DNA of 64,000 nucleotides from an uncultured delta proteobacterium (GCA_963796685.1 CAWCMR010000015.1:224001-288000), one strand, 5' to 3'; counted from the first letter of the stretch, positions 24,823 to 53,807 are shown. Notes: generated by a model not told the origin, from the sequence alone. Translations and numbers: made by a program.

Positions 24823-26454
24823 CTACCCGGCTGTGTGCGGCAGGCGCCGCGGGCGCCGCTTCCGATCTCGGCGCCACCTTGCCGCGAGGAGTATGCCACT
24901 GCCCATCAGGGTGGCCAGGCTGATAGCGACGCCGGGGTAGAACCCGACGGGGACGAAGGTCGCCTCGACGCGATTTTGTCCGGCGGGCACCGCGACCAGA
25001 ACATTTCGGCCGTGGATGCGAGCAGCCAAGCCGGCGGTTTGCCATTCGAGCCTGCGACGGCTGGTGTGCAGGGGCAGAAGCAACTCGGAGGGCCGGGTCG
25101 CACGCACGTCCCAGACCAATCTATTCGGCGAGGTCTCCACCACCGAAACGGTTGCTTCGCCGGATTCGACCCGGGGCAACACGGGTGACCACGGACGGGT
25201 GAGCACGGGATCGCCAGCCCCGAAATCCTGCCACGGCATCGTCTCGAGGTAGCGCTCGCCGACCAACAGTCCGAGCAGCGCCACGAGCAGCGGCACGCGC
25301 AGCCGGCGCCACCGCGCGTGGCCGGCCAGCCAAGACTCCACGAGGGGAAGGCCGCGTGCGGCGACCAACCAACAGCAAAACACGAATACCGAAAGCAGCC
25401 GCGCGGGTACGCGTTGCCCGGCGATCGTCCACGACCTGAAACCAAGGTCGACGGCCAATGCGAGGGCCAGGGCTGCGACCAGCACCAGGATCGATTCGCG
25501 GGCGCGGCGGGCGGCCCACAGGCCCGCCAGGAGGAGCGCCGCTCCGATGAGCCCCACCGACGCGTCCCGCTCCCACGAAAACGGCACCAGCGATCCGCTG
25601 TAGCCATGGCCCGAGGCGAAGACAGGACCCCCGATGGTCAGGGCTCGCGCGAGATCGCTGGCGGCAATACCCTGGAAGAGCTGGGGCGGCTCGAAGGCGG
25701 CAAATCCATAGGCCGAGGGCAGCACGCGGGCGGCGGAGAGCCCGACCGCGAACAGCAGCGCCAGCGCAAAGACCCGTAGCGGGGCGAGGCTGCGTTCCTG
25801 CGCCGCCCACAGCAAGGCCCAGGCCGCCAGCAGCGCGACCAGCCAGATGGCCGGGTGATGCTGCCCGGCGATGATGAGCAGGGCGATGATCCCGCCGAGG
25901 CCCATGGTGCGGACGGTGTCGCAGCCCATGGACACGGCCCGCTTGAAAAGCAAGGCCGCGAACGGCCACAGGTACACGCCGAGCACCCAATGGTGACCCA
26001 CGATGAAATTCGAGACGGGAAAACCTTGCAGCCCGAAGATCGTAGCCAGCAGCGCAGCAGTCAAGGGCGTGGCGCCCAACCCGCGCGCCAGCAGATAGGC
26101 CCCGCAGATGCCCGCGGTGGCGTAGGCGACGAACAGGAGCTTCAAGTATGCCTGGGCGTGCATGAAATAGAGCAGCCACACCATCGGGTTCAGGATCGGC
26201 GACTCCGGCAACGAAGCGAGGCTATGGGTCCAGGTCTCGTACTGCTTGGGCAGATACAGTGGAAGGGCGCCGTGCTCGCGCAGCGACATGTGAATCCACT
26301 CGTAGAAATGGACGTGTTGTTGCCAATCCAAGGCATCGAAGGAGCCGCCGAAAAGCAGCTTGTGGTAGTACGCGACCAGCGCGCCGGCGACCAGGGCGCC
26401 GGCGAGCAGCGCGCCTCCGGCGCGCCGGAGCGCGCTCGTGAAGCGAACCGCCAT
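24823..26454 (-). CDS. Polytopic membrane protein, YfhO/GT-C glycosyltransferase-like
   Basis: First TM followed by an acidic loop (FDALDW...G.LPL), more than 10 TM helices, a periplasmic C-terminal domain (VPAG...V...F.P) and a final TM. Confidence 0.55.
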   Translation of the reverse strand: MAVRFTSALRRAGGALLAGALVAGALVAYYHKLLFGGSFDALDWQQHVHFYEWIHMSLREHGALPLYLPKQYETWTHSLASLPESPILNPMVWLLYFMHAQAYLKLLFVAYATAGICGAYLLARGLGATPLTAALLATIFGLQGFPVSNFIVGHHWVLGVYLWPFAALLFKRAVSMGCDTVRTMGLGGIIALLIIAGQHHPAIWLVALLAAWALLWAAQERSLAPLRVFALALLFAVGLSAARVLPSAYGFAAFEPPQLFQGIAASDLARALTIGGPVFASGHGYSGSLVPFSWERDASVGLIGAALLLAGLWAARRARESILVLVAALALALAVDLGFRSWTIAGQRVPARLLSVFVFCCWLVAARGLPLVESWLAGHARWRRLRVPLLVALLGLLVGERYLETMPWQDFGAGDPVLTRPWSPVLPRVESGEATVSVVETSPNRLVWDVRATRPSELLLPLHTSRRRLEWQTAGLAARIHGRNVLVAVPAGQNRVEATFVPVGFYPGVAISLATLMGSGILLAARWRRDRKRRPRRLPHTAG

Positions 26455-26741
26455 GTAAACGATCACGGCCCCCAGTATACATCGACACCTTCTCTGCTCT
26501 GCGTTAGGCGATGTCATGGTGAGAAGTTTGCTGTGAGAAGAGCGACGGCGAGCCCACTTTCGGCCGCGCATTTGAGCACTCGAGTGGGTGCAAGGAGGCC
26601 TGGACGAGACCAAGTCTATTCGCATAAGCCTTTGTAATCATAAGTTAAATTGGCAGCATTATGCGGTATTCAGACAGCTTGATGCCGAATTGGCCGATCT
26701 CGCGCCAGCCCTTGACTTGCCCCTCGGCCTCTGCAACTATG

Positions 26742-26776
26742 TCGTTACGGAATTCACAGCGTGACTTCATGCACAG
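26742..26776 (+). promoter_or_regulatory. Two tandem degenerate Rex operator-like sites
   Basis: TCGTTACggaaTTCACAG and GCGTGACttcaTGCACAG compared with the Rex consensus TTGTGAA-N4-TTCACAA. They lie between a TTGACT (26712) and the rex ATG. Confidence 0.5.
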
Positions 26777-26793
26777 CGGTTCGGGGGCGGATC

Positions 26794-27483
26794 ATGAACA
26801 AGCGAAAAATACCAAGCCGGTGCGTAGAGCGACTCAGCATCTACAGGCGCGCTTTGCTTCAGGATAGGCGTCTGCATGGTCCCAGCATCTATTCCCACGA
26901 GCTGGCGTTCGCCTGCCGCCTGACGGCGGCGCAGGTGCGCCGGGATCTGATGCTCATCGGGTACAGTGGCAGCCCGACCTCGGGCTACGAGGTCAAACGG
27001 TTGCTCTCGTCCATCGGCTCATTGCTCGATCCGCCGAACGTGCGCGAGGTGGCCATCGTGGGTATGGGGCACCTCGGCCGCTCCATCGCGGCCTACCTTG
27101 TGAATCGGTCGCCCAAGATTCAACTGACCGCGGCCTTCGACGTGAAACCCGACAAGATCGGCGCCACCTTCAGCGGCGTGCCGTGCTACTCGGTGCAGAA
27201 GCTGGCCGAGGTGGTTTCGTCGAGGGGCATCGTCATCGGCATCTTGACGGTGCCATCCGAGAACGCCCAGGAGATGGCCGAGCAACTGGTCCGGGCAGGC
27301 GTGACGGGCATCCTCAATTTCGCCCCGGCCTGTTTGCACATTCCCGAAAAGATACACGTCGAGAACATCGACATGACGGTGGCGTTGGAGAAGGTCGGCT
27401 TTTTTGCATGCGGCAGCCATAGAAGAAAAGGAAACATCGATGACCACAGCAGCACGAGCAACATCGACCAAACCGCTCCTTAA
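26794..27483 (+). CDS. rex: Redox-sensing transcriptional repressor Rex
   Basis: IP.....RL..Y.R.L, S.ELA......AQVRRDL..G..G....GY.V, GMGHLG Rossmann motif, GILNFAP. Confidence 0.93.
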   Translation: MNKRKIPSRCVERLSIYRRALLQDRRLHGPSIYSHELAFACRLTAAQVRRDLMLIGYSGSPTSGYEVKRLLSSIGSLLDPPNVREVAIVGMGHLGRSIAAYLVNRSPKIQLTAAFDVKPDKIGATFSGVPCYSVQKLAEVVSSRGIVIGILTVPSENAQEMAEQLVRAGVTGILNFAPACLHIPEKIHVENIDMTVALEKVGFFACGSHRRKGNIDDHSSTSNIDQTAP

Positions 27484-27934
27484 GGAGTTCGGGGCGGCCA
27501 AGCGAGACAGTCTGATCCCGATCCTGCAGAAGGCGCAGGAGGCCCATGGCTATCTGTCCGAAGAGGCGATCGCGGAGATCGGACGCCACCTGAAATTGCC
27601 CGCCAGCAAGGTCTACGGCGTCGCGACCTTCTACAACCAGTTTCGCTTCACGCCCAAGGGCAAGTACCACATCATGCTGTGTCGTGGGACCGCCTGCCAC
27701 GTGAAGGGCTCGCTCAAGTTGCTGGACGCGGTCACCCGCACGCTGAAGTTGCAGGCGGGACAGACCACGCGCGACGGGATGTTCAGCCTGGAAGTCGTGG
27801 CCTGCATGGGCGCCTGCGGCCTGGCCCCGGCCGTGAGCATCAACGGCGAGATGTACGCCAAAGTCACCCCCAAGAAGGTCGGCAAGATCATCGATGAGTG
27901 CCGCGCCAAGGAGCAGACCCATGCCCGTGCTTGA
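27440..27934 (+). CDS. hydC: HydC/NuoE-like [2Fe-2S] subunit
   Basis: LIPILQ.AQE..GYL, GVATFY.QF, CRGTAC, CMGAC. Confidence 0.9.
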   Translation: MTTAARATSTKPLLKEFGAAKRDSLIPILQKAQEAHGYLSEEAIAEIGRHLKLPASKVYGVATFYNQFRFTPKGKYHIMLCRGTACHVKGSLKLLDAVTRTLKLQAGQTTRDGMFSLEVVACMGACGLAPAVSINGEMYAKVTPKKVGKIIDECRAKEQTHARA

Positions 27935-30900
27935 AACACCCGCCAAGACAGCCTGCTGGACCGAACCCTCGCGTCCCACCGCCGAGCTTCTGACCAAACT
28001 GCCCGTGGGGCAGCTTTCGGCCAAGGCCGGTGGCGACATCAAAGAGCGCATCACGCTGCTCCGCCGCGAGAAAGTCGGCAAGCCCACCCTCTTCATCGGG
28101 ACCGGGACGTGTGGCCTCGGCGCCGGCGCGGCCAAGACCATGGAAGCGGCCAAGGCCTACCTCGCCGCCAAGAAGCTCGACGCGGACGTCATCGAGGTCG
28201 GCTGCCTCGGTATGTGCTCGGAAGAGCCCATGCTCGACGTGCAGTTGCCGGGCAAGGCGCGGGTCAGCTTCTGCCGCGTGACCGCCGACCGCGTGGCCTC
28301 GCTCCTCGACTCGGCGCTGGCCGGCAAGGTTGAGGGGGACCTCACGCTGGGGCAGTTCCGCAGCAAGACGGCCGAAGCCTGGCCGAATGTGCCTTTCCTC
28401 GACAAGCACCCGTTCTTCGCCCCACAACTGCGCTGGGTGCTCGCCAACTCGGGCATCATCGATCCCGGTAACATCGACGAGTACATCGCGCGCGGCGGTT
28501 ATGCAGCGATGGAAGCTGCCCTGCGCACGAAGAAGCCGGAAGAGGTGGGCGACATCGTCACCAAGGGCGGTCTGCGCGGCCGTGGCGGCGGTGGCTTCCC
28601 GACCGGCGTGAAGTGGAAGTTCGCGCGCGAGACCCAGGCCGACCAGAAGTACCTCATCTGCAACGCCGACGAGGGCGATCCCGGGGCGTTCATGGATCGC
28701 GCGGTGGTCGAGAGCGATCCGCACCGCCTGCTCGAAGGCATGGTCATCGCGGCCTATGCCATCGGCGCCAGCAAGGCGTACATCTACATTCGCGCCGAGT
28801 ATCCGCTGGCCATCAAGCGGCTCAAGGCCGCCATCCCCAAGGCGACCGAGTACGGGCTCCTCGGCAAGAACATCCTGGGCAGCGGTTTCGATCTCGAGAT
28901 CGTGCTCAAGATGGGCGCCGGAGCGTTCGTGTGCGGCGAAGAAACCGCGCTCATGCAGAGCATCGAGGGCAAGCGCGGCATGCCGCGCCCGCGCCCGCCG
29001 TTCCCGGCGGTGTCGGGTCTCTTCGGCAAGCCCACGGTCATCAACAACGTCGAGACCCTGGCCAGCGTGCCGGCCTTGATGGAGATGGGCGGCGATGCCT
29101 TCGCCGCGGTCGGCACCGCCAAGAGCAAGGGCACCAAGGTGTTCGCGCTCTCGGGCAAGGTCAACCGCACCGGCCTGGTCGAGGTGGCCATGGGCACCAC
29201 CATCCGCGAGATCGTCTTCGACATCGGCGGCGGCATCCCCAACGGCAAGAAGTGCAAGGCCGTGCAGATCGGCGGCCCGTCGGGCGGCTGCATCCCCGAG
29301 CCCAAGATGGACATCATCGTCGACTACGACGCCATCAAGACCGTCGGCGCCATCATGGGCTCCGGCGGCCTGGTCGTTCTGGACGAGAACACCTGCATGG
29401 TCGACCTGGCCAAGTTCTTCATGGAGTTCATCGGCAACGAGAGCTGCGGCAAGTGCATCCCCTGCCGGGAGGGCACCAAGCGGATGCTGGAGATCCTGCA
29501 GGCCATCACCCGGCCGCGGCGGCGCGAGAACGGCAGCGATGCCTTGCTGCGCTTCCAGGGCGTGATGCAGCTCAAGCAGCTGGCCGAAACCATCCGCATC
29601 AGCTCGCTGTGCGGCCTTGGCCAGACCGCGCCCAACCCGGTGCTCACCACCCTGCGCTGGTTCCGCGACGAGTACGAGGCGCACATCTTCGACCGCGCCT
29701 GCCCGGCCGGCACGTGCAAAGAGCTGGTCGGCGCTCCCTGCCAGACCGGCTGCCCGGTAGGCACCGAGGTGTGGCGCTATGTCGCGCACATCGCTCGCGG
29801 CGAAACCGAGCTGGCCTACCAGACCATCCGCGACGCCAATCCCTTCCCGTCGGTGTGCGCACGCGTGTGCAGCCACCCCTGCGAGGAGGTCTGTCGCTGC
29901 GGCGCCACGGGCGGCGAGCCCATCGCCGTGCGCGCGCTCAAGCGCTACGTGGTGGATCACATCGACCCCAGCTCGTACACGGTCACCATCAAGCCAGCCA
30001 CCGACAAGTCCAAGAAGGTGGCGGTCATCGGCGCCGGTCCGTCGGGCCTCACCACGGCCCACTACCTGTCGCAGAAGGGGCACAAGGTCACCGTGTTCGA
30101 GAAGGAAAACGAACCCGGCGGCATGCTCTTCAACGGCATTCCGGCGTACCGCCTTCCGCGCGAGGTCGTGCGCAAGGAGATCGCGTCGCTGCTCAACGCG
30201 AACATCGAGCTCAAGTGCAACATCGCGCTGGGTAAGGACGTGACGGTCGACGGACTCATGGCCAGCGGTTTCGACGCTGTCTACGTTTCCATCGGCGCGT
30301 ACAAGAGCCAGCGTCTTGGCATCGACGGCGAAGACGTGGCCGGCGTGATTCCGGGCATGGCCTTCCTCAAGGCCAATAACCTGCGCGACGAGAAGCTGGC
30401 CAAGGGCAACGTGGGCATCATCGGCGGCGGCAACACCGCCATGGATGCGGCCCGCGTGGCTTTGCGCCAGCCCGGCGTCAAGAAGGTCACCATCCTCTAT
30501 CGCCGCACGCGCGACGAGATGCCCGCCTTCGCCGAGGAGGTTCACGCCGCACTCGAAGAGGGCATCGAGCTCAAGGAGCTGGTCGCTCCGGTCTCGGTGT
30601 TGTCCAAGGACGGCAAGCTCACCGGCATGCACATGATTCGTAACGAGCTCGGCGCGCAGGACGCCAGCGGCCGGCCGCGACCGGTGCCGGTCAAGGGCAG
30701 CGAATTCGAGCTCGCTCTCGATACGCTGATCGTGGCCATCAGCGAGCAGCCGGAGGCCGAAAGCTTCCAAGGACTGCGCACCACCAAGTGGGGCACCATC
30801 GAAAACAACCCGGAGTCGTTGGCGGCCGGCAAGCCCGGCGTGTTCAGCGGTGGCGACGTGGCGCGCGGACCGACCGGCGTCATCGAGGCCATCGCCGACG

Positions 30901-31181
30901 GCAAGCGCGCGGCGTTGATGATCGACCGCTACCTCACCGGACGGCAGATGAAGATGATCAAGAAGGTGAAGTTGCCTTCGATCTACATCGAGCCGCTCCT
31001 GGACGCCGAGGACGACGAGGAATCCGAATCCGTCGCGGTCCGCGCGGTCGAAGAGATGGTGCCCGCCGCCAAGCGGCGCACGAGCTTCGTCGAAGTCGAA
31101 ATGGGTCTGTCGCTGCAGGCGGCGACGGATGAAGCAAGAAGGTGCCTGCGCTGTGACCTGGACTTCACCCGACCCCTTTGA
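27921..31181 (+). CDS. hydB: HydB/NuoF-like FMN subunit fused to a GltD/NfnB-like FAD/NADPH oxidoreductase module
   Basis: GLRGRGGGGFPTG, NADEGDPGAFMD, GGPSGG, SCGKCIPC..C; then PCQTGCP, CARVC..PCE..C, GAGPSG, GGGNTAMD..R, YRR, GGD, EARRCLRC. Confidence 0.9.
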   Translation: MPVLETPAKTACWTEPSRPTAELLTKLPVGQLSAKAGGDIKERITLLRREKVGKPTLFIGTGTCGLGAGAAKTMEAAKAYLAAKKLDADVIEVGCLGMCSEEPMLDVQLPGKARVSFCRVTADRVASLLDSALAGKVEGDLTLGQFRSKTAEAWPNVPFLDKHPFFAPQLRWVLANSGIIDPGNIDEYIARGGYAAMEAALRTKKPEEVGDIVTKGGLRGRGGGGFPTGVKWKFARETQADQKYLICNADEGDPGAFMDRAVVESDPHRLLEGMVIAAYAIGASKAYIYIRAEYPLAIKRLKAAIPKATEYGLLGKNILGSGFDLEIVLKMGAGAFVCGEETALMQSIEGKRGMPRPRPPFPAVSGLFGKPTVINNVETLASVPALMEMGGDAFAAVGTAKSKGTKVFALSGKVNRTGLVEVAMGTTIREIVFDIGGGIPNGKKCKAVQIGGPSGGCIPEPKMDIIVDYDAIKTVGAIMGSGGLVVLDENTCMVDLAKFFMEFIGNESCGKCIPCREGTKRMLEILQAITRPRRRENGSDALLRFQGVMQLKQLAETIRISSLCGLGQTAPNPVLTTLRWFRDEYEAHIFDRACPAGTCKELVGAPCQTGCPVGTEVWRYVAHIARGETELAYQTIRDANPFPSVCARVCSHPCEEVCRCGATGGEPIAVRALKRYVVDHIDPSSYTVTIKPATDKSKKVAVIGAGPSGLTTAHYLSQKGHKVTVFEKENEPGGMLFNGIPAYRLPREVVRKEIASLLNANIELKCNIALGKDVTVDGLMASGFDAVYVSIGAYKSQRLGIDGEDVAGVIPGMAFLKANNLRDEKLAKGNVGIIGGGNTAMDAARVALRQPGVKKVTILYRRTRDEMPAFAEEVHAALEEGIELKELVAPVSVLSKDGKLTGMHMIRNELGAQDASGRPRPVPVKGSEFELALDTLIVAISEQPEAESFQGLRTTKWGTIENNPESLAAGKPGVFSGGDVARGPTGVIEAIADGKRAALMIDRYLTGRQMKMIKKVKLPSIYIEPLLDAEDDEESESVAVRAVEEMVPAAKRRTSFVEVEMGLSLQAATDEARRCLRCDLDFTRPL

Positions 31182-31209
31182 TGGTCGCGGCTTTTAGAAA
31201 GAAACAAAC

Positions 31210-32931
31210 ATGCTGACCATCGAAATCAACGGAAAGAAACTGGAAGCCAACAAGGGCGAGACCATCTTGGCGGTCGCGCGCAGAAGCGGCATCGAGATAC
31301 CGACCCTGTGCCATATGGAAGGCCTCATGCCGAGCGGCTCGTGCCGCATGTGCGTGGTCGACGTCGAGGGCTTCCCCAATCTGCTCACCGCGTGCTCGTA
31401 CCCGGTGGCCGACGGGATGAAGGTGAAGACCCATTCGCCCAGAGCCCTCGAAACCCGCCGGACGATCGTGCAGCTCCTCCTGGCCAATCACCCGGACGAC
31501 TGCCTCTACTGCGCGCGCAGCTCGAACTGCGACTTGCAGGGGCTGGCGCGCGACCTCGGCGTCTCGCGCCGCGAGTACCACGGGTTCCGTGCCAAGAAGA
31601 GCCTGGACGTGTCGGGGGCCTCGCTGGTGCGCGATCCGGAGAAGTGCATCCTGTGCGGCAAGTGCGTGCGGGTGTGCGAGGAGATCCAGTCGGTGTCGGC
31701 CATCGACTTCGTGGGCCGCGGCAGCAAGACGGTGATCGGAACCGCGTTCTCGCGCGGGCTGGCCACTTCGAGCTGCATCAATTGCGGTCAGTGCGTGGTG
31801 GTGTGCCCGACCGGCGCGCTGGTCGAGCGATCCTATGTCACCGAGGTTCTGGGCGCCTTGCGCGACCCGGACAAGTTCGTGGTCGTGCAACACGCGCCCG
31901 CCGTGTCGGTCACCCTGGCCGAAGAGTTCGGCGTGCCGCCGGGAACGGATTGCGACGGCCAGATGGTGGCCGCCCTTCGCCGCGCCGGGTTCAAGCGGGT
32001 GTTCGACACCAGCTTCAGCGCCGACCTCACCATCATGGAGGAGGCCTCCGAGTTGGTGCACCGGATCAAGACCGGCGGAAAGCTGCCGATGTTCACCAGT
32101 TGTTCGCCAGGCTGGATCAAGTTCATGGAGACGTTCTACCCGGACATGCTCGGGCACTTGTCGACGTGCAAGAGCCCGCAGCAGATGCTGGGGGCCATCA
32201 CCAAGAGCTACTTCGCTCAGCGCGAAGGCATCGATCCGACCAAGATCGTCAGCGTGTCCATCATGCCGTGCACGGCCAAGAAGTTCGAGGCGGGCCGGCC
32301 CGAGATGACCCAGGCCTACAACCCCGATGTGGACTACGTCCTCACCACGCGCGAGGCGGCTCAGCTTCTGCGCATGAGCGGCGTGGGCATGACCGGCATC
32401 GAACCGGAATCGGCCGACACGCCCTTCGGCGAGCGCTCGACGGCGGGCAAGATCTTCGGCGCCTCGGGTGGCGTGATGGAGGCGGCGGTTCGCACGGCGC
32501 ACTGGATGATCACGGGCAAAGAGTTGCCCGGTCTCGACGTCCAGCCGCTGCGCGGGCTCGATGGCGCCAAGGAGCTGAAGGCCAACATCGGCGGCATCGA
32601 GGTCGGCGCCGCGGTGGTCAGCGGTCTCGGCAACGCACGCGCCCTGGTCGAGCAGATCCGCGCGGGTCGCAAAGACCTTCACTTCATCGAGGTCATGACC
32701 TGTCCCGGCGGCTGCATCAACGGCGGCGGTCAGCCGCTGCACTCCGACAAACAGGCGGTCCTCGCGCGCATGAAGAAGCTGTACAACCTGGACAAGGACG
32801 CCACCTTGCGCGTCAGCCACGACAACAAGTCGGTCAAGCGCCTGTACGAGGAATTCCTGGGTGCGCCCCTCGGTGAAAAGAGCCACCATCTGCTGCACAC
32901 GCATTACTCGGCGAGAGAGGTCTTGGTGTAA
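31210..32931 (+). CDS. hydA: [FeFe]-hydrogenase catalytic subunit (group A, multimeric type)
   Basis: H-cluster motifs TSCSPGW, MPCTAKKFE and EVMTCPGGCINGGG; N-terminal [2Fe-2S], His-ligated [4Fe-4S] (HPDDCLYC) and 2x[4Fe-4S]; C-terminal LLHTHY. Confidence 0.95.
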   Translation: MLTIEINGKKLEANKGETILAVARRSGIEIPTLCHMEGLMPSGSCRMCVVDVEGFPNLLTACSYPVADGMKVKTHSPRALETRRTIVQLLLANHPDDCLYCARSSNCDLQGLARDLGVSRREYHGFRAKKSLDVSGASLVRDPEKCILCGKCVRVCEEIQSVSAIDFVGRGSKTVIGTAFSRGLATSSCINCGQCVVVCPTGALVERSYVTEVLGALRDPDKFVVVQHAPAVSVTLAEEFGVPPGTDCDGQMVAALRRAGFKRVFDTSFSADLTIMEEASELVHRIKTGGKLPMFTSCSPGWIKFMETFYPDMLGHLSTCKSPQQMLGAITKSYFAQREGIDPTKIVSVSIMPCTAKKFEAGRPEMTQAYNPDVDYVLTTREAAQLLRMSGVGMTGIEPESADTPFGERSTAGKIFGASGGVMEAAVRTAHWMITGKELPGLDVQPLRGLDGAKELKANIGGIEVGAAVVSGLGNARALVEQIRAGRKDLHFIEVMTCPGGCINGGGQPLHSDKQAVLARMKKLYNLDKDATLRVSHDNKSVKRLYEEFLGAPLGEKSHHLLHTHYSAREVLV

Positions 32932-32933
32932 CC

Positions 32934-33350
32934 ATGAGCGAAACAAAGACGATCCTGATTGTTGACGACGACCTCGACATCCTCGAGCAATACACCCTGC
33001 TCCTCAAGGCGGACGGCCACACGGTCGTGCAAGCCAGCAGCCTGGCCGAGGCCGAGGAGACCATCCTGACGGTTCGCCCCGATCTGGCCATCTTGGACCT
33101 GATGATGGACGAAAAGGACGCGGGCTTCGTGCTGTGCAACCAGCTCAAGCGCTTGTATGCCAACCTGCCGGTCATCATCGTGTCCAACGTCACGCCCATC
33201 ACCGGGCTCGACTTCAGGCCGCGCAACCAGGAAGAGCACTCATGGGTGCGCGCGGATGCGATTCTGAACAAGCCCATCGTCGCCGAGCGTTTGCGCGGCG
33301 AAATTGCCCGGCTGCTCAATCAAGGGCAGGCCGCGGCTGCCGTACACTAG
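32934..33350 (+). CDS. Stand-alone response regulator receiver protein
   Basis: ILIVDDD, ILDLMM (phosphoacceptor Asp), IIVS, NKP; no output domain. Confidence 0.9.
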   Translation: MSETKTILIVDDDLDILEQYTLLLKADGHTVVQASSLAEAEETILTVRPDLAILDLMMDEKDAGFVLCNQLKRLYANLPVIIVSNVTPITGLDFRPRNQEEHSWVRADAILNKPIVAERLRGEIARLLNQGQAAAAVH

Positions 33351-33405
33351 GGCGTGGAGAAAGCACGGCGGGTGAAGTAACCGGCATGCAAAGATGGGAG
33401 CTTCC

Positions 33406-35451
33406 ATGACCATCGCGCAGCCGAAGTGCTTCACCAAGACCGTGAAAGATCGCTGCCACGTCTGCTACACCTGCGTACGCGGTTGCCCGGCCAAGGCCAT
33501 CCGGATCCTGGACCGCCAGGCCGAGATCGTCGCCGATCGCTGCATCGGCTGCGGCAACTGCGTGCGGGTGTGCGGGCGGGGCGCCAAGAAGGTCGTCAAC
33601 ACTGTTCCCGACGTCGAAACCCTGCTCGCCGGGGGCGGGCGTGTGGCGGCCCTGGTGGCCCCCAGCTTCGCGGCCGAGTTCTACGATGTGTGCGAGGCGC
33701 AGAATCCCCAGGTGCTGGTGGGGATGCTGCGCAAGCTCGGCTTCGATCTCGTGACGGAAGTGGCGTTCGGCGCCGACCTGGTCGCGCATGCCTACCGCAA
33801 GCTCCTCGATTCGCGTCCAGCCGGGACGCGCTACATCGCCACCACGTGCCCCGCGGTGGTCGGCTACGTCGAGCGCTACTGGCCCGAGCTGGTTGGCCAT
33901 TTGGCGCCGCTGGTGTCCCCCATGGTGGCCATGGCGCGCGTCCTGCGTGCCATGCATGGGCCGGATCTGCGCACGGTCTTCATCGGGCCTTGCCTGGCCA
34001 AGAAGGTCGAGGCCAGCATGCCCGAGCTCGCTGGCGAGGTGGACGCCGTGATCACCTTCGCCGAGTTGCGCACCATGTTCCTGTCCCATGCCGTGGAGGC
34101 GGCCTCGACGCCGGGAAGCGATTTCGATCCGCCTCACGCCGGGACCGGCACCTTGTTCCCGCTCAACCGCGGGCTGTTCCAGGCCGCCGGCATCAGCGAG
34201 GATTTGGCCAGCACCGAGGCCGTGGCGGCCCACGGCGGGCCAGGGTCGTTCGTGAACGCCATCGAGGAGTTCGCGGGTGGCGACGTCGACTTCGGCCTGG
34301 TCGAGGTGCTGTGCTGCAACGGCTGCGTGTCGGGGCCGGGCATGACCTCGCACGAGAAGACCTTCCGCCGCCGTGCCCGGGTGGCCAAGTACGCCAACGA
34401 GAGCAAACGCACGCGCGACGCGACCAAGTGGTACGACGAGATGGATCGATTTTCCACCGTCGACCTCGCGCGCAAGTTCATTCCCTTCGATCAGCGCACC
34501 GCCATGCCGTCCGAGGAGGAAATTCGCCACATCCTGCGCGGCATGGGCAAGGAGAGCGAGGCCGACGAGCTCGACTGCAAGGCGTGCGGGTATTCGACCT
34601 GCCGCGAGCACGCCATCGCGATCTATCGCGGACTGGCCGAAACGCAGATGTGCCTGCCTTACGTCATCGATCGCTTCGACCACACCGTACGCCAGCTCTC
34701 CGAATCGAACCGACAGCTCGAAACCACGCAAGAGCAGCTCATGCACTCGGAGCGCCTGGCCAGCATGGGGCAGCTCGCCGCCGGCGTGGCCCACGAGCTC
34801 AACAATCCGCTCGGCGTGGTGTTGCTCTACGCGCACCTCTTGCGTGACGAGGCGAGCGAGGACTCGGGCATGCGCAAGGAGCTGACCTTGATCAGCGATC
34901 AGGCCACGCGGTGCAAGCGCATCGTGTCGGATCTGCTCGACTTCGCGCGCGAGAACAAGCTGCTGCTCGAACAGATCAGCGTCGAAGAGCTGATCAAGCG
35001 CAGTCTGGCCGGCCTGCCGTTGCCGCAGGAGATCAACATCGTCCTCGAGCTGGGCCACGTCCACCCCGAGTGCGAGGTCGATCCCGCGCAGATGATCCAG
35101 GTGCTGACCAACCTCTACAGCAATGCCTTTGCCGCCATGCCGAACGGCGGTACTCTGACCATCGCCACGCACGAGGAGGGCGAGCGCCTGATCATCAGCG
35201 TGCACGATACGGGCACGGGCATTCCGGCCGAGAACATGAAGCACATCTTCCAGCCCTTCTTCACCACCAAGCAAATCGGCAAGGGCACGGGGCTTGGCCT
35301 GGCGGTGGTATACGGAATCGTGAAAATGCACCGGGGCGACATCGTGCTCGAATCCAATGCCGATGCGGCGCGCGGTCCCACCTGGACCCGTTTCAAGGTG
35401 TCGATTCCGCACAATCAGGTCATGCAGGGCGCCGAGACGAGGATTGGCTGA
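33406..35451 (+). CDS. Sensory [FeFe]-hydrogenase-like domain fused to a histidine kinase (group C type)
   Basis: 2x[4Fe-4S] (CHVCYTC...CP, CIGCGNC); variant H-cluster motifs TTCPAV, GPCLAKK and EVLCCNGC..GPG; FeS motif DCKACGYSTC; HisKA AHELNNPL; HATPase N/G1/F/G2 boxes. Confidence 0.9.
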   Translation: MTIAQPKCFTKTVKDRCHVCYTCVRGCPAKAIRILDRQAEIVADRCIGCGNCVRVCGRGAKKVVNTVPDVETLLAGGGRVAALVAPSFAAEFYDVCEAQNPQVLVGMLRKLGFDLVTEVAFGADLVAHAYRKLLDSRPAGTRYIATTCPAVVGYVERYWPELVGHLAPLVSPMVAMARVLRAMHGPDLRTVFIGPCLAKKVEASMPELAGEVDAVITFAELRTMFLSHAVEAASTPGSDFDPPHAGTGTLFPLNRGLFQAAGISEDLASTEAVAAHGGPGSFVNAIEEFAGGDVDFGLVEVLCCNGCVSGPGMTSHEKTFRRRARVAKYANESKRTRDATKWYDEMDRFSTVDLARKFIPFDQRTAMPSEEEIRHILRGMGKESEADELDCKACGYSTCREHAIAIYRGLAETQMCLPYVIDRFDHTVRQLSESNRQLETTQEQLMHSERLASMGQLAAGVAHELNNPLGVVLLYAHLLRDEASEDSGMRKELTLISDQATRCKRIVSDLLDFARENKLLLEQISVEELIKRSLAGLPLPQEINIVLELGHVHPECEVDPAQMIQVLTNLYSNAFAAMPNGGTLTIATHEEGERLIISVHDTGTGIPAENMKHIFQPFFTTKQIGKGTGLGLAVVYGIVKMHRGDIVLESNADAARGPTWTRFKVSIPHNQVMQGAETRIG

Positions 35452-36614
35452 TGGGAGAGCGACTACGGGTTCTGGTTGTCGATGACGAAGAGGGTATTCG
35501 TCTCGGCGTGGCTAGGGTTCTCGAACGCTTCGTCGCCAGCTTTCCCGACATCGCGGCCGAGATCAGCTACGACATCGAGTCCGCAGCAAGCGGCGAGGAC
35601 GCGGTGGAACGCCTGCGCGATTCGCCGCCCGACATCCTGCTGCTCGATCTGAAATTGCCGGGCATCGGCGGCCTCGACGTCCTGCGCGAGGCGCGCAATC
35701 TGGAGCCACCCGTCCTGACCATCATGATCACGGCCTACGCCTCGGTGACCACCGCGGTCGAGGCGACGCGCGGCGGGACTTTCGATTTTCTGCCCAAGCC
35801 GTTCACGCCGAACGAAATCAAGGCTTGCGTCCGCCGCGCCACACGCGACCTGGTCTTGAGTCGGCAGGCGAAAAAATTGGCGGCCGAGCAGCGACGCACG
35901 CGCTTCGAGCTCATCCGGGTCCTGGTGCACGAGCTGAAGGCGCCGCTCGGCGCCGTCGAGGGCTATTTGGCCTCGATTCTGGATGGCGTGGTCAACGACG
36001 AGGAGACGCGTCGCCATGTGGTGACCCGATCCATCGCGCGCATCCAGGGCATGCGCCAGCTCATCCTCGACCTGCTCGACGTGACCCGCCTGGAGGCCGG
36101 GATGAAGGCGCGCGATTTCTCGACCGTGTCGCTGACCGACCTGGCGCGCGAGTGCGTGGATGCCCTGCGCCCGCAGGCCGAGGCCAAGCATCTGACCTTG
36201 GAGATCGTCGGTGCCCCCGATCTCGAGCTGGTCGCCGTGCGCGCCGAGCTGGAAATCGTGCTCAACAACCTGCTGACCAACGCCATCAAATACAACCGCG
36301 AGGGCGGCAGCGTGCGCGTGTCGCTGGGGCGGCACGAGGATGTCTTCGTGATCGCCGTGCACGACACCGGCTTCGGGCTTTCGCGCGACGACGCTGCCAA
36401 GCTGTTCAACGACTTCGTGCGCATCAAGAACGTGAAGACCCGCGGCATCGAGGGCTCGGGCCTCGGCCTGGCGACCGTCAAGCGCATCGCGGGCCTGTAC
36501 CACGGCGACGCCACGGTAGACTCGCAGCTCGACCAAGGAAGCACTTTCACCGTCACCCTCAAGGCAGCTGTGCCCGCAAAGGCACTGCTGCCGGAAAAGC
36601 AAGCGCAAGCATGA
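35451..36614 (+). CDS. Hybrid response regulator / sensor histidine kinase (REC-HisKA-HATPase)
   Basis: VLVVDDE, LLDLKLP, ITAY, PKPF; VHELKAPL, NLLTNAIKY, DTG.G, GSGLGL. Confidence 0.92.
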   Translation: MGERLRVLVVDDEEGIRLGVARVLERFVASFPDIAAEISYDIESAASGEDAVERLRDSPPDILLLDLKLPGIGGLDVLREARNLEPPVLTIMITAYASVTTAVEATRGGTFDFLPKPFTPNEIKACVRRATRDLVLSRQAKKLAAEQRRTRFELIRVLVHELKAPLGAVEGYLASILDGVVNDEETRRHVVTRSIARIQGMRQLILDLLDVTRLEAGMKARDFSTVSLTDLARECVDALRPQAEAKHLTLEIVGAPDLELVAVRAELEIVLNNLLTNAIKYNREGGSVRVSLGRHEDVFVIAVHDTGFGLSRDDAAKLFNDFVRIKNVKTRGIEGSGLGLATVKRIAGLYHGDATVDSQLDQGSTFTVTLKAAVPAKALLPEKQAQA

Positions 36615-36874
36615 AAGATCACCGCATCGTAGGTGTCCACATCACCGACCGCGCCACCCACGCCGGCGAGGTCCAAACCATCCTGAGCAAATATGGCAAG
36701 AACATCCGCACCCGGCTCGGCCTGCACGAGGTCAGCGAGGACTCGGCAGCGCCGAATGGCCTCATCATCCTGGAAGCCGTGGGAACCAACCAGGAAATCG
36801 ACGCCCTCTCCGACGAGCTGCGCCACCTCAAAGGCGTGCAAGTGCAGAGCATGTTTTTTTCACATCCTGAGTAG
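36611..36874 (+). CDS. TM1266-like iron-only hydrogenase system protein
   Basis: I.G..I.DR......VQ.ILS.YG..IRTRLGLH...GLI.LE; about 87 aa, located next to hydG. Confidence 0.8.
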   Translation: MKDHRIVGVHITDRATHAGEVQTILSKYGKNIRTRLGLHEVSEDSAAPNGLIILEAVGTNQEIDALSDELRHLKGVQVQSMFFSHPE

Positions 36875-36877
36875 ATT

Positions 36878-36981
36878 TTTCACCACAGAGGGCACAGAGA
36901 GCGCGGAGGTCGGAATGGAAGAATTTCGGATTCAAGAGCCGAAAGCCTCCTACTCTCGGCCTCGGTGCCTTTGCGGTGAAA
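36878..36981. repeat. REP-like palindromic element, copy 1
   Basis: TTTCACCACAGAGGGCACAGAG... pairs imperfectly with ...CTCGGTGCCTTTGCGGTGAAA. Confidence 0.7.
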
Positions 36982-37062
36982 TTCACGAGAACATTCGCCT
37001 AGAGCACCATGGGATTGCCTGGCGCTGCCGGGCCGCCGTGCAGAACGCATACAAGCCATTTT

Positions 37063-37170
37063 TTAACCACAGAGAACACAGAGGTCCGGAGAGTGAAGGG
37101 TTTTCCGGATCTCGATCCGAACCCTTCATTCCTCATCCGTCTCCGTGTTCTCTGTGTCCTCTGTGGTTAG
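37063..37170. repeat. REP-like palindromic element, copy 2
   Basis: TAACCACAGAGAACACAGAG... pairs with ...CTCTGTGTCCTCTGTGGTTA; internal TGAAGGGTT/AACCCTTCA stem. Confidence 0.75.
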
Positions 37171-37307
37171 AATCCGGAAATTGCCCGGGTTTCAACCCGT
37201 TCGGTGCTCTAGTGTCCCTGCCTTGCGAGGAACTCCAGGTCCTCGCGGTAAACCTGGCAGGGCAATGCAGTCTGCGCTAGTCTATCGAGGAAAGAAAGGA
37301 TTTTTCG

Positions 37308-38732
37308 ATGTTGCCCCTATCCAAAACGCTGAGCCAGCATGCCGAGGATTTTATCGACGACGCCCATTTGGAAAGGCTGGCCGGCGCCGCGGATCTGGTC
37401 GATGTGGGGCGCCTGCGCGGCGTCATCGCCAAGGCGCTCGACAAGCAGGCTTTGACCGTCGAGGAAACCGCGGTCCTTCTGCACGCCCGCGATCCGGAGC
37501 TGCGCGAGGAAGTGTTCGCGGCGGCGCGCGATCTCAAACAGCGCGTGTACGGCAACCGCATCGTCCTCTTCGCGCCGCTCTACCTCGGCAATCTGTGCGT
37601 GAACAACTGCGCCTACTGCGGCTTTCAGAGCAACAACAAGGACATGGTCCGACGTACGCTGGGCATGGAGGAGATCCGCCAGCAGGTGGTGGCCATGGAA
37701 AATCAGGGCCACAAGCGCCTCATCGTGGTGTTCGGCGAGCACCCGCGCTACGACGCCGACTTCATCGCCAGTTGCATCCGCGATATCTACGACGTGACGA
37801 GCGGGCACGGCGAGATCCGGCGCGCCAACGTGAACGCGGCCCCGTTCGACCACGCGGGTTTCAAGACCATCAAGGCCGCCGGCATCGGCACGTATCAGAT
37901 CTTCATGGAGACGTACCATCACAAGACCTACGCGCGCGTCCATCCCCACGGCACGCCGAAGGGCGACTACCTGTGGCGGCTCGATGCCCTGAGCCGCGCT
38001 TTCGAGGTGGGGCAGGACGACCTCGGCATCGGCGCGCTCTTCGGTCTGGCGAATTGGCGCTTCGATGTGCTCGGCCTGGTCAGCCATGCGGTCTTCCTGA
38101 AAGAGCGCTACGGCTGCGGGCCGCACACCATCAGCTTTCCGCGTTTGCGGCCCGCCTCTGGCGTGGATCTGGGGAACGAGAACCTGGTCGGCGACGAGGA
38201 CTTCAAATTCCTGATCGCGGTGCTGCGCCTGGCTGTGCCTTACACCGGGCTCATCCTCACCGCGCGCGAGACCGCCGATCTGCGCAAGAGCGCCATGGAA
38301 TTCGGCGTGTCCCAGATCGACGCCGGCTCGTGCGTCGAGCTGGGGGGCTACACCGAACAGACCTGCGGTCAGCGCATGGAGCGCGAGCAGTTCACGCTCG
38401 GCGACATGCGCCCGCTCGATACCGTCATTCGCGAGCTCACCGAGCAGGGGCACGTGCCCAGCTTCTGCACCGCCTGCTACCGCCTGGGCCGCACCGGCGA
38501 GCACTTCATGGAGTTCGCCATCCCCGGCTTCATCAAGCGCTTCTGCACGCCCAATGCCCTGACCACGTTCATGGAATACCTCGTCGACTACGCGACGCCG
38601 GAAACCGCCAAGTCCGGCTTGGCGCAGATTCAGGTCGAGCTCGACAAGCTGGAGGACTCGCCCATGAAGCAAACGTTGATCGAGCGGTTGGCCAAGGTGC
38701 GGGAGACCAACGAGCGGGACATGGTCTTCTAA
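37308..38732 (+). CDS. hydG: [FeFe]-hydrogenase H-cluster maturase HydG
   Basis: YGNRIVLFAPLY..N.CVNNCAYCGF radical SAM motif; GPHTISFPR; C-terminal PSFCTACYR.GRTG..FM...C.PNA. Confidence 0.95.
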   Translation: MLPLSKTLSQHAEDFIDDAHLERLAGAADLVDVGRLRGVIAKALDKQALTVEETAVLLHARDPELREEVFAAARDLKQRVYGNRIVLFAPLYLGNLCVNNCAYCGFQSNNKDMVRRTLGMEEIRQQVVAMENQGHKRLIVVFGEHPRYDADFIASCIRDIYDVTSGHGEIRRANVNAAPFDHAGFKTIKAAGIGTYQIFMETYHHKTYARVHPHGTPKGDYLWRLDALSRAFEVGQDDLGIGALFGLANWRFDVLGLVSHAVFLKERYGCGPHTISFPRLRPASGVDLGNENLVGDEDFKFLIAVLRLAVPYTGLILTARETADLRKSAMEFGVSQIDAGSCVELGGYTEQTCGQRMEREQFTLGDMRPLDTVIRELTEQGHVPSFCTACYRLGRTGEHFMEFAIPGFIKRFCTPNALTTFMEYLVDYATPETAKSGLAQIQVELDKLEDSPMKQTLIERLAKVRETNERDMVF

Positions 38733-38733
38733 G

Positions 38734-39891
38734 TCACAGCAGTTTGTCGTTCCACAGCTCGTCGAGGAATGTTCGCCAGGGGAGGCAACGGATGGAGCCT
38801 TGCTTGGTTTCGATGGGATCTTCGGAAACGAGAAAGAACTGGCGCAAGATTTTCTCTTCGGCGAGCGCGGTCAGCCCGCGGAGGTCGGAGGCTCCAACAT
38901 GCCGGGTGGCCTTGGTTTCGACAGCGAGGTGATCGCCGACGACGAAGTCGACCTCGTGGTCGGCGGTGGAGCGCCAATAGCGGAGCTCTTCATGACGGCG
39001 TCGGTAGCCGAGATAGGCCCGTAGCTCCATGGCGATCCATTGCTCGAAGCTGCGGCCGTAGAGGTCGGAATTGCGGTCGAGAGTGCGCGTTCCGCTGAGC
39101 GCGTGCGCGACGCCGGTGTCGAAGAAGTAGAACTTGGCGGTAGCAATGGCTTTCCGCTTCTTCGACTTGGTCCAGGCGGGAAGCAGAAACCCCACCAGGG
39201 TGTCTTCCAGGAGGAAATAGTGCTCGCGCACCGTGGCCGCGGGCAGACCGGCATCGTTGCCGATCTTGGCGAAGTTCAGCATCTGGCCGTTGGTCGAGGC
39301 CGCCGTGGTCAGGAATCGGGTGAAGGCCGGAAGACGGCGTACCAGGCCTTCTGCCTGGATCTCCTCGTGCAAGTAGGTTCGCACGTAGGCGTGCAACTCC
39401 TCCTCGGGCTCATCGCTCAGCACGACCGGAGGGAGGCCTCCATAGCGAAGAAATCTCGGCAGGTCGAACTTGGGGATCTCCGCGTAGGTCAAGGGATAGA
39501 GGTTCGCCGTCCAGGCGCGTCCACCAAGGAGGTTGGCGTGGCCGTGCCTGAGCTTGCGGGCGCTGCTCCCCGTGAGAACGAAGCGCATGCCACGCTCCTC
39601 GATCAACCGGTGGACTTCGTCGAGAATGTGCGGAATCTTCTGAACCTCGTCGATCACGATGGGCGCGGTCGCTGCCCGGCGGTCCGCATCGATCATCGCT
39701 TCAAGGAGGTTGGGGCTGGCGGAGAGCCGGAGAAAGAGATCGGAACGTAGGAGGTCGATGACGACCGCCTGGCCGCCGAGCTGTTGGCGGACGAGGAAGC
39801 TCTTCCCCGTCATGCGCGGTCCGAGGAGGAAGAAGGACTTCTTCTTGACCAGCGCGGCGAGATCCAGGGCCCGTCTGATGTTGGATATCAT
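38734..39891 (-). CDS. AAA ATPase (AAA_14) with DUF4143 domain
   Basis: GPRMTGKS, IDEVQK, LTGSSA, YGGLP, KFYFFDTG, EVDFV...ETK. Confidence 0.88.
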   Translation of the reverse strand: MISNIRRALDLAALVKKKSFFLLGPRMTGKSFLVRQQLGGQAVVIDLLRSDLFLRLSASPNLLEAMIDADRRAATAPIVIDEVQKIPHILDEVHRLIEERGMRFVLTGSSARKLRHGHANLLGGRAWTANLYPLTYAEIPKFDLPRFLRYGGLPPVVLSDEPEEELHAYVRTYLHEEIQAEGLVRRLPAFTRFLTTAASTNGQMLNFAKIGNDAGLPAATVREHYFLLEDTLVGFLLPAWTKSKKRKAIATAKFYFFDTGVAHALSGTRTLDRNSDLYGRSFEQWIAMELRAYLGYRRRHEELRYWRSTADHEVDFVVGDHLAVETKATRHVGASDLRGLTALAEEKILRQFFLVSEDPIETKQGSIRCLPWRTFLDELWNDKLL

Positions 39892-53748: not shown

Positions 53749-53807
53749 CCTTCAGATCTAGCACACGAGGTCCGGCTGTGACATCGACCACACGATGCGC
53801 GGGCGAC

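Follow-up and report, generated by a model that had tools for sequence, protein, structure and literature searches.

The stretch of DNA analysed here (the window, 64,000 nucleotides from an uncultured delta proteobacterium) carries, at 32934-36614 on the plus strand, three adjacent genes for a stand-alone receiver, a histidine kinase whose sensor resembles an [FeFe]-hydrogenase (kinase 1), and a receiver-containing histidine kinase (kinase 2). We read this module, at a probability of about one half, as a two-tier kinase cascade inside the operon of an NAD(P)-linked trimeric [FeFe]-hydrogenase, in which the hydrogenase-like domain (H-domain) of kinase 1 would signal to kinase 2, and kinase 2 to the receiver. 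Judged from sequence, the three genes form an intact, well-conserved member of a family that is already catalogued and lacks biochemistry; the specific gene is not categorically new, and what is added here is the proposed wiring, a serial two-kinase cascade, and the link of the receiver to the hydrogenase structural genes. An initial annotation of this DNA had given the coordinates, the domain order (REC; FeS/H-domain-HisKA-HATPase; REC-HisKA-HATPase) and the sensor motifs, all of which are present in the sequence. The C-terminal Cx2Cx4Cx16C motif of kinase 1, a TM1266-like gene downstream and rex at the head of the gene run were absent from it. The parts of the module are listed below, with residues of the sensor kinase numbered in the 685-residue frame.

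32934-33350, plus strand: stand-alone receiver (REC-only), 138 residues (Pfam Response_reg, 55.5 bits).
33394-35451, plus strand: sensor kinase (kinase 1), putative HydS-type module fused to a histidine kinase, 685 residues (Pfam; likely start 33406).
33454-33573, plus strand: eight cysteines of two predicted N-terminal [4Fe-4S] sites, residues 21-60 (C21, C24, C27, C31, C50, C53, C56 and C60, invariant 20/20).
33643-34338, plus strand: H-domain, residues 84-315, with ATTCP, GPCLAKKVE and EVLCCNGC (Fe_hyd_lg_C, 155 bits; motifs align to solved HydA chains).
34576-34653, plus strand: C-terminal Cx2Cx4Cx16C cluster motif, C395, C398, C403 and C420 (PF04060, 32 bits; cysteines invariant).
34765-35412, plus strand: HisKA (H467) and HATPase_c of kinase 1 (Pfam; AtoS 200 bits, ZraS 180 bits).
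35451-36614, plus strand: REC-controlled histidine kinase (kinase 2), REC-HisKA-HATPase, 387 residues (Pfam REC 7-127, HisKA 153-217, HATPase_c 265-372).

In the proposed mechanism, the first tier would be a soluble histidine kinase that senses through a complete "slow-type" [FeFe]-hydrogenase module without a proton relay. H2, or a redox poise in equilibrium with H2, would set the redox state of the H-cluster and the C-terminal cluster, and the redox change would alter how the helix leading into the dimerization and histidine phosphotransfer (DHp) domain packs, and hence the autophosphorylation of kinase 1. In the second tier, kinase 1 would phosphorylate the N-terminal REC domain of kinase 2, a Rec-controlled kinase in the sense of LvrB; the phosphorylated REC would switch on the PhoR/WalK-like core of kinase 2, which would phosphorylate the stand-alone receiver. 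The receiver, having no output domain, would probably act by protein contact on the hydrogenase or another partner. We infer cofactor binding, the response to H2, the direction of every phosphotransfer and the output from the features described below.

In terms of domain composition, kinase 1 contains Fer4 (residues 18-64), Fe_hyd_lg_C (84-315, 155 bits), the FeS family PF04060 (393-422, 32 bits), HisKA (458-520) and HATPase_c (563-673). Its likelier start is ATG 33406, which gives 681 residues, since GGAG precedes this codon and the closest homologues are 681 residues long. Conservation was scored in an alignment of 20 family members from several phyla that are 42-89% identical to the window protein, the labelled ones coming from Polyangia, Latescibacteria, Krumholzibacteria, Phycisphaerae, Planctomycetota, Verrucomicrobia and Deltaproteobacteria. 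The four H-cluster cysteines, C152, C200, C308 and C311, are invariant (20/20) and align with the P1/P2/P3 cysteines of solved HydA chains. Equally invariant in this alignment are the pocket positions A89-P90-S91, K203 and E206, all four cysteines of the C-terminal motif, and the H-box and N/G1/G2 boxes of the kinase core (H467, N573/N577, D605-G607-G609 and G631-G635).

The initial annotation had listed TTCP without the proton-transfer cysteine, GPC..KK and EVLCCNGC as the sensor motifs, and these are found as ATTCP, GPCLAKK and EVLCCNGC, aligned to P1, P2 and P3, respectively. Against solved HydA, ATTCP aligns with SCCP, GPCLAKKVE with MPCxxKKFE, and EVLCCNGC with EVMACPGGC; in P3, the last two cysteines of kinase 1 are spaced as CxxC, shorter by one residue than the CxxxC of the HydA chains in the alignment. 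The proton-relay position (C299 of CpI) is a threonine in kinase 1 and variable in the family (T/A/S/M/N), the position of M353 is an invariant glycine, and that of M497 an invariant leucine. In group A enzymes, the diiron site is framed by these two methionines, M353 and M497. Hydrogenases of groups C and D are described as lacking C299, having M353/M497 changed, and carrying two N-terminal clusters and a C-terminal Cx2Cx4Cx16C motif (PMC8163306). The H-domain of kinase 1 scores 310-333 bits against four Bacteroidales proteins of the Fer4/H-domain/FeS type, versus 45-56 bits for the HydA of the window against the same four; two of the four were scanned with Pfam, and both have the Fer4/H-domain/FeS arrangement, one of them (from locus L090; L numbers denote other genomic stretches) with an additional PAS domain. 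By its cysteines, the loss of the relay and this similarity, the sensor of kinase 1 is a group C/D putative sensory (HydS-type) [FeFe]-hydrogenase module, and the earlier assignment to group C, whose enzymes are putatively sensory, agrees with the sequence hallmarks of groups C/D found here. Binding of the [2Fe] subcluster and a response to H2 are predicted.

The 685-residue kinase 1 has no match to a PAS family in Pfam, and HisKA comes directly after the C-terminal cluster, the last cysteine of which lies 47 residues before the phospho-accepting histidine with one predicted helix between them. An AlphaFold2 model of kinase 1 has a mean predicted local distance difference test (pLDDT) score of 77.3, with values of ~90 in the H-domain. 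In Foldseek searches, the first ~430 residues of this model match CbA5H, DdHydAB, TmHydA and CpI (E about 1e-19 to 1e-17), and the kinase core matches the cytoplasmic domain of ZraS.

These features bear on the question of what kinase 1 would sense. The four invariant H-cluster cysteines, together with APS, K203 and E206, aligned with the pocket motifs of solved HydA, speak against an alternative that we regard as unlikely, in which the module senses redox (the ferredoxin or NAD(P)H pool) via its FeS clusters rather than H2, and the H-domain is a cofactor-less Nar1/NarF-like scaffold or an extra redox centre. Such a sensor would accord with the three accessory [4Fe-4S] sites of kinase 1, with the absence of the proton relay, with an operon headed by the NADH sensor Rex, and with a hydE gene that appears broken in the assembly of the organism's own genome; moreover, the authors of an mSystems 2024 study could scarcely detect P1-P3 in the proteins that they classed as "C1", and they questioned whether H2 is sensed (PMC11406978). 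On the other hand, the relatives TmHydS and TamHydS are reported to bind the cofactor (PMC8163306), and the sensor pair keeps its linkage to hydG/hydE-like genes in loci that have no catalytic hydrogenase nearby (e.g. L078, L085, L131, L134 and L157).

Kinase 2 starts at ATG 35451 and has 387 residues; the list of open reading frames (ORFs) starts it at GTG 34911. The TGA of kinase 1 and this ATG share one base (TGATG at 35451), which bears out the overlap of kinase 1 stop and kinase 2 start noted earlier. In the family of kinase 2, the phospho-accepting aspartate, the lysine, the histidine and the T/S position are each conserved in 135/135 members, the DD pair in 134/135 and the ATP boxes in 129-132/135. 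The nearest solved chains are VicK-like and HK853-type kinases, and the NCBIfam model for LvrB is absent from the top 25 matches of kinase 2; it is a Rec-controlled histidine kinase by its predicted architecture, not by sequence membership. The stand-alone receiver likewise belongs to a family with conserved phosphorylation residues (D55 in 125/125 members, K113 in 124/125 and T/S84 in 124/125), and its alpha4-beta5 stretch is atypical yet conserved.

Domain searches of the three proteins found no histidine phosphotransfer (HPt) family, and the protein in the middle has its own ATP-binding domain, which makes it a complete kinase. The term "phosphorelay" used in the initial annotation was therefore a loose one, and, with no HPt domain and a second protein that is a complete ATP-dependent kinase, two-tier kinase cascade is the better name. 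Its statement that none of the three proteins has an obvious transmembrane (TM) helix or helix-turn-helix (HTH) motif holds: domain searches found no HTH family, and the highest 19-residue Kyte-Doolittle mean is 1.53, which makes a TM helix unlikely.

The order of the cascade was examined through family likeness and gene adjacency. For the core of kinase 1, the closest likeness is to AtoS (200 bits) and ZraS (180 bits); the REC of kinase 2 comes nearest to the receivers of AtoC (81.7 bits), NtrC (72.6 bits) and LuxO, and the kinase 2 core to PnpS, PhoR and WalK. The two receiver classes separate: 163 short receivers match the stand-alone query only, and all REC-kinases (140/140) match the kinase 2 REC only, the exceptions being 10 short receivers, 9 of which are REC-kinases that end at contig ends. 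In loci L028 and L046, kinase-1-type kinases adjoin NtrC-sized regulators, the REC domains of which score 61 and 72 bits against the kinase 2 REC and 0 against the stand-alone receiver. In the HydABC operons of L037, L052, L061 and L063, kinase-2-type kinases with 6TM-PilS-like and/or GAF inputs adjoin stand-alone receivers, which suggests that the pair of receiver and kinase-2-type kinase takes several different inputs. These likenesses, together with the pairings in L028/L046 and in L037/L052/L061/L063, lend indirect support to the order kinase 1, kinase 2 REC, kinase 2, receiver. The initial annotation had proposed the step from kinase 1 to the REC of kinase 2, which fits the match between an AtoS/ZraS-like core and an AtoC/NtrC-like REC. 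It had also offered the REC-only protein as an end point, which fits the adjacency of its family members to kinase-2-type cores in four foreign loci and one further locus of the own genome. For the suggested link to motility, no evidence was found.

Co-evolution analysis of the HisKA/REC pairs, which the initial annotation had recommended, was carried out as mutual information with average product correction (APC) between DHp and REC columns, for four pairings with 105-134 locus-matched pairs each. The pairing of the kinase 1 DHp with the kinase 2 REC gave an interface block mean of p = 0.058 and a top-10 mean of p = 0.052, and that of the kinase 2 DHp with the REC-only protein a top-10 mean of p = 0.06. 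The method is limited here because alpha1 of the kinase 1 DHp is almost invariant; the mean entropy of alpha1 is 0.81 bits in the kinase 1 DHp, 1.46 in the kinase 2 REC and 2.15 in the REC-only protein.

Several observations weigh against the serial cascade. The covariation analysis singled out no partner among the four pairings, and its strongest interface block was that of the kinase 1 DHp with the REC-only protein (mean p = 0.007), so that kinase 1 may act on the REC-only protein directly. The choice of partners is suggested by family likeness and gene adjacency, both of them indirect. The best NCBIfam matches of the receiver family are mixed (OmpR-type, NtrC-type and DivK-like), and all are far below cut-offs. 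The linker of kinase 1 between the C-terminal cluster and the DHp domain (residues 420-472) has a pLDDT <50, which leaves the coupling mechanism without structural support. Finally, the sole hydE-like gene of the genome, at C5:309031-310024 (L012 9031-10024), falls into two pieces in different frames (233.8 and 78.8 bits with the HydE model). The split may be a frameshift or an assembly error; if it is real, assembly of the H-cluster in this organism is doubtful.

The interface signal is also the first point for a branched wiring, in which kinase 1 would phosphorylate two targets, the REC of kinase 2 and the receiver (the latter serving as a sink for phosphate or as a local output), and kinase 2 would in turn act on an unlinked DNA-binding regulator. 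A remote regulator is plausible since none is conserved in the module, and the genome has at least 43 receiver matches at E <= 1e-8. In addition, 17 of the 18 loci without an adjacent hydA have the sensor and the REC-kinase with no adjacent REC-only gene, and kinase 2 may have another target there. We nevertheless hold the branched arrangement to be improbable. The receiver family pairs with kinase-2-type cores wherever just one kinase adjoins (the four foreign loci and the Hox locus of the own genome, below), the core of kinase 1 and the REC of kinase 2 both fall in AtoS/AtoC-like classes, and alpha1 varies less in the kinase 2 REC than in the REC-only protein, matching the near-invariant alpha1 of the kinase 1 DHp.

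The serial cascade was further viewed against the gene context of the family in 160 foreign loci, where domains were called by phmmer with the window proteins as queries. The REC-kinase follows the sensor in 116 of the 118 loci with at least 2.3 kb downstream (the misses being L086 and L154), and hydA lies directly upstream of the sensor in 96/119. A stand-alone receiver is found beside the sensor in 89 of the 108 loci with both flanks (29 upstream, 70 downstream, 10 of these both). Where hydB is fused to gltD, as in the window, the receiver is upstream of the sensor (10/12 loci); where it is not, the receiver is downstream (33/33). The gene rex is on the same strand in 37 of the 50 loci with at least 7.5 kb upstream, and HydG/E-like genes follow the sensor pair in 31 of the 49 loci with at least 6 kb downstream. 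No conserved DNA-binding regulator occurs across the 160 loci, and divergent NtrC-sized regulators are present in a few Planctomycetota and Myxococcota loci (e.g. L028, L042, L044 and L046). The earlier statement that the module has no DNA-binding output is thus borne out, both at the window and across the foreign loci.

The bare receiver goes with the structural genes of the hydrogenase, not with the sensor. Among the 99 loci with enough flanking DNA, it stands beside the sensor in 80 of the 81 with hydA adjacent versus 1 of the 18 without (Fisher p = 6e-17). Sensor pairs that stand apart from the hydrogenase keep rex and maturases (e.g. L078, L085, L131, L134 and L157), and in L046, L052, L061, L063 and L147 a member of the receiver family lies beside another hydCBA set, not beside the sensor. 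The counts of hydA adjacency and the stand-alone pairs point to two sub-modules, one of sensor kinase and REC-kinase (with rex and maturases) and the other of receiver and hydrogenase structural genes. That the signalling genes instead control maturation, reporting the capacity for H-cluster building and adjusting hydE/F/G or the TM1266-like protein, is very unlikely: kinase 2 is ATGA-coupled to the TM1266/CPF_0552-family gene, with hydG following, and the pair stays with maturase genes in loci without a hydrogenase, but a TM1266-like gene lies near the pair in 7/49 loci only, the sensor's own need for maturases is a simpler explanation of the linkage, and the REC-only gene follows hydA, not the maturases.

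The Bacteroidales loci L054, L066, L068 and L090, all from metagenome-assembled genomes (MAGs), have a second, divergently transcribed sensor of ~617 residues upstream of hydC, besides the kinase-fused one downstream of hydA. Those of L054 and L090 were scanned with Pfam and have the Fer4/H-domain/FeS arrangement, with an additional PAS domain in L090. The same four loci carry two tandem TM1266-like genes after hydG.

The own genome was searched for further members in its assembly of 7.3 Mb on 26 contigs (88.6% complete, 6.5% contamination). A second module at C3:70609-80097 (L010 4630-14097) consists of rex, receiver, hydC, hydB without GltD, hydA, sensor kinase, receiver and a REC(partial)-PAS-kinase. 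Its sensor kinase is 43% identical to that of the window; the genome thus encodes two H-domain kinases, with a different HydABC variant next to each. With the REC-only profile, four matches stand out in this genome (177, 121, 87 and 86 bits; the next scores 61). The fourth, at C15:301057-301419 (85.9 bits), lies behind a Hox-type operon with a NuoE/F-fused diaphorase and a [NiFe] (NiFeSe) large subunit, about 8-15 kb past the end of the window (C15:295783-302841; L176 3816-10841). The next gene, 3 nucleotides on, encodes a membrane HisKA-HATPase kinase; across the H-box it shares 34% identity with the core of kinase 2, and its alignment with kinase 1 is confined to the ATP domain. By these similarities, the Hox locus is a second hydrogenase class with the same putative receiver/kinase pair.

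The tracking of hydA by the receiver, its placement in L046, L052, L061, L063 and L147, the member in the Hox operon and the conserved alpha4-beta5 surface together suggest a tentative role for the receiver, namely that of an accessory factor, switchable by phosphorylation, of soluble hydrogenases that contain NuoE/NuoF, of the [FeFe] HydABC as well as the [NiFe] Hox type. We rate this role as a speculative one; if true, H2 feedback would be post-translational, on the activity or assembly of the enzyme, and not transcriptional control. A complex prediction of the stand-alone receiver with a Rex dimer returned a score of 0.00 and gave no answer.

The module lies in one co-oriented run on the plus strand, rex, hydC, hydB-gltD, hydA, REC-only, sensor kinase, REC-kinase, TM1266-like gene and hydG, whose other features are as follows.

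26794-27483, plus strand: rex, redox-sensing repressor, first gene of the run (NCBIfam NF003995 Rex, 202 bits, cut-off 126; Pfam Put_DNA-bind_N and CoA_binding).
27404-27934, plus strand: hydC, NuoE-like [2Fe-2S] subunit, start codon uncertain (Pfam 2Fe-2S_thioredx, 175.6 bits; NuoE/HoxE families).
27894-31181, plus strand: hydB fused to a GltD-like NAD(P)/FAD module, 1095 residues (Pfam Complex1_51K, NADH_4Fe-4S, Fer4_20 and Pyr_redox_2; NuoF and PRK12771 families).
31210-32931, plus strand: hydA, catalytic [FeFe]-hydrogenase subunit with P1 motif TSCSPGW (NCBIfam NF040763, group A6, 824 bits, cut-off 765).
36611-36874, plus strand: small protein of the TM1266/CPF_0552 family, 87 residues (NF052672, 93 bits, cut-off 85; PF21699, 32.8 bits, cut-off 27).
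36875-37307, no strand: intergenic gap of 433 bp with REP-like direct and inverted repeats (sequence repeats).
37308-38732, plus strand: hydG, radical S-adenosylmethionine (SAM) maturase of the H-cluster (TIGR03955, 476.7 bits, cut-off 312).

The start of rex is read as ATG 26794, and the ORF list gives GTG 26761. The receiver starts 3 nucleotides after the hydA stop, and the stop of kinase 2 overlaps the start of the TM1266-like gene by ATGA; against TIGR03959, the small protein scores 38.2 bits, below the 60.8 cut-off. Of the remaining maturase genes, hydF is on the contig of the window (535 bits). The P1 motif TSCSPGW of hydA departs from the textbook TSCCPxW, and a lost cluster ligand was considered and rejected; the motif is common to 105 of the 119 HydAs beside sensor kinases and to the solved chain 7q4v_A, and is thus a regular variant of the HydABC lineage. 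Within the gap at 36875-37307, a CCACAGAG-RR-CACAGAG core is repeated in direct and inverted orientation; in the genome this core has 47 exact copies on 13/26 contigs and looks like a dispersed element of the repetitive extragenic palindromic (REP) kind. Its presence on C3 among these contigs argues that C3 is not contamination.

A scan of 26400-39000 gave 0 sigma-70 promoters and 8 intrinsic terminator-like sites versus 8.9 expected, and so says nothing about where the operon ends. A window scan with a Rex operator consensus (TGTGA-N6-TCACA, <=1 mismatch) gave 1 match, at 53777, far from the operon, with 1.01 expected by chance, and identified no operator. The flanks of the run are unrelated to it (ABC transporter, DUF4143 ATPase, ketopantoate reductase). 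Elsewhere in the window, at 2943-5215 on the minus strand, a Methyltransf_33 histidine-specific SAM methyltransferase gene stands beside one for a DinB_2/FGE-sulfatase protein, an arrangement that resembles an EgtD/EgtB-type ergothioneine pair.

The rarity implied by the initial annotation did not survive, as this kind of protein is catalogued and very common. The hydrogenase domain, HisKA and HATPase are listed together in 119 of the 120 best database proteins. Relatives were confirmed in at least 582 of 602 candidate stretches from species-representative genomes and in at least 565 of 600 from metagenomes, the named genomes being MAGs whose labels span more than 15 phyla of anaerobes; the 160 foreign loci include Hydrogenedentota, Elusimicrobiota and Caldithrix-like contexts. 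HydDB (2016) lists an [FeFe] group C1 as "histidine kinase-linked (putative)" that may sense H2. Kinase-fused group C proteins appear in a genome survey of Elusimicrobia lineage V (bioRxiv 10.1101/765248; 2020), and a "BfuT" with a His-kinase domain beside BfuABC in Hydrogenedentota (PMC11406978; mSystems 2024). The latter study places kinase-domain forms in C3 and HATPase forms in C1, so that binning based on HydDB is inconsistent. In its accessible text there is no mention of a response regulator, receiver, CheY or Rex, and the gene-cluster drawings of its supplement (Figs S4, S5 and S7) may show the genes. In the open-access literature, we found no description of the receiver/REC-kinase wiring and no biochemical test of the kinase-fused family.

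Whether group C [FeFe]-hydrogenases sense H2 has been an open question since the class was proposed. The characterised TmHydS and TamHydS are without a measurable signalling output, and the kinase-fused form offers autophosphorylation as a simple in vitro readout; with the next two proteins of the proposed path encoded beside it, the sensor makes a useful test bed. The family probably shapes H2 exchange in sediments, digesters and guts, as it stands beside the enzymes that set fermentative H2 release.

Regulatory [NiFe]-hydrogenases, of which HoxBC-HoxJ-HoxA and HupUV-HupT-HupR are examples, are like the window module in outline. In that class (HydDB group 2b), a hydrogenase of low activity passes the H2 signal to a histidine kinase in control of hydrogenase genes. 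Neither its metal site nor its fold is related to that of the window module; sensor and kinase are two proteins, and the pathway ends in a DNA-binding regulator of the NtrC type. The window module, by contrast, joins sensor and kinase in one chain, adds a second kinase in between and has no linked DNA-binding output.

Closer likeness is found within the [FeFe] enzymes. The kinase-fused proteins of HydDB C1 and of the group C surveys also combine an H-domain of group C type with a histidine kinase, fused or linked, and have the same trimeric HydABC/BfuABC operon adjacent with Rex nearby; these survey papers, in the text available, report no biochemistry, and PMC11406978 likewise has no mention of a REC-kinase or a stand-alone receiver. 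The HydS proteins of Thermotoga maritima (group C, M2f) and Thermoanaerobacter mathranii (group D, M2e) share with kinase 1 the two N-terminal [4Fe-4S] sites, the absence of the C299 relay and the C-terminal Cx2Cx4Cx16C motif. At the M353/M497 positions, kinase 1 has G and L, TmHydS G and S, and TamHydS S and L (PMC8163306). They differ in what follows the C-terminal cluster: TmHydS continues into a PAS domain and TamHydS has neither a PAS nor a kinase domain, whereas in kinase 1 the cluster motif leads through one predicted helix to HisKA/HATPase. No solved structure of TmHydS or TamHydS was among the PDB matches of kinase 1.

For the second tier, the comparison is with LvrB of the Leptospira Lvr pathway, in which phosphorylation of the REC frees the catalytic domains (PMC13269768). 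Kinase 2 is not a close relative of LvrB, and LvrB has as its effector LvrC, an anti-sigma factor, where the window module has a receiver with no added domain. The two kinases nevertheless follow the same plan, with an N-terminal REC, a helical linker, HisKA and HATPase and no other sensor, and each would be placed between another kinase upstream and a small effector downstream.

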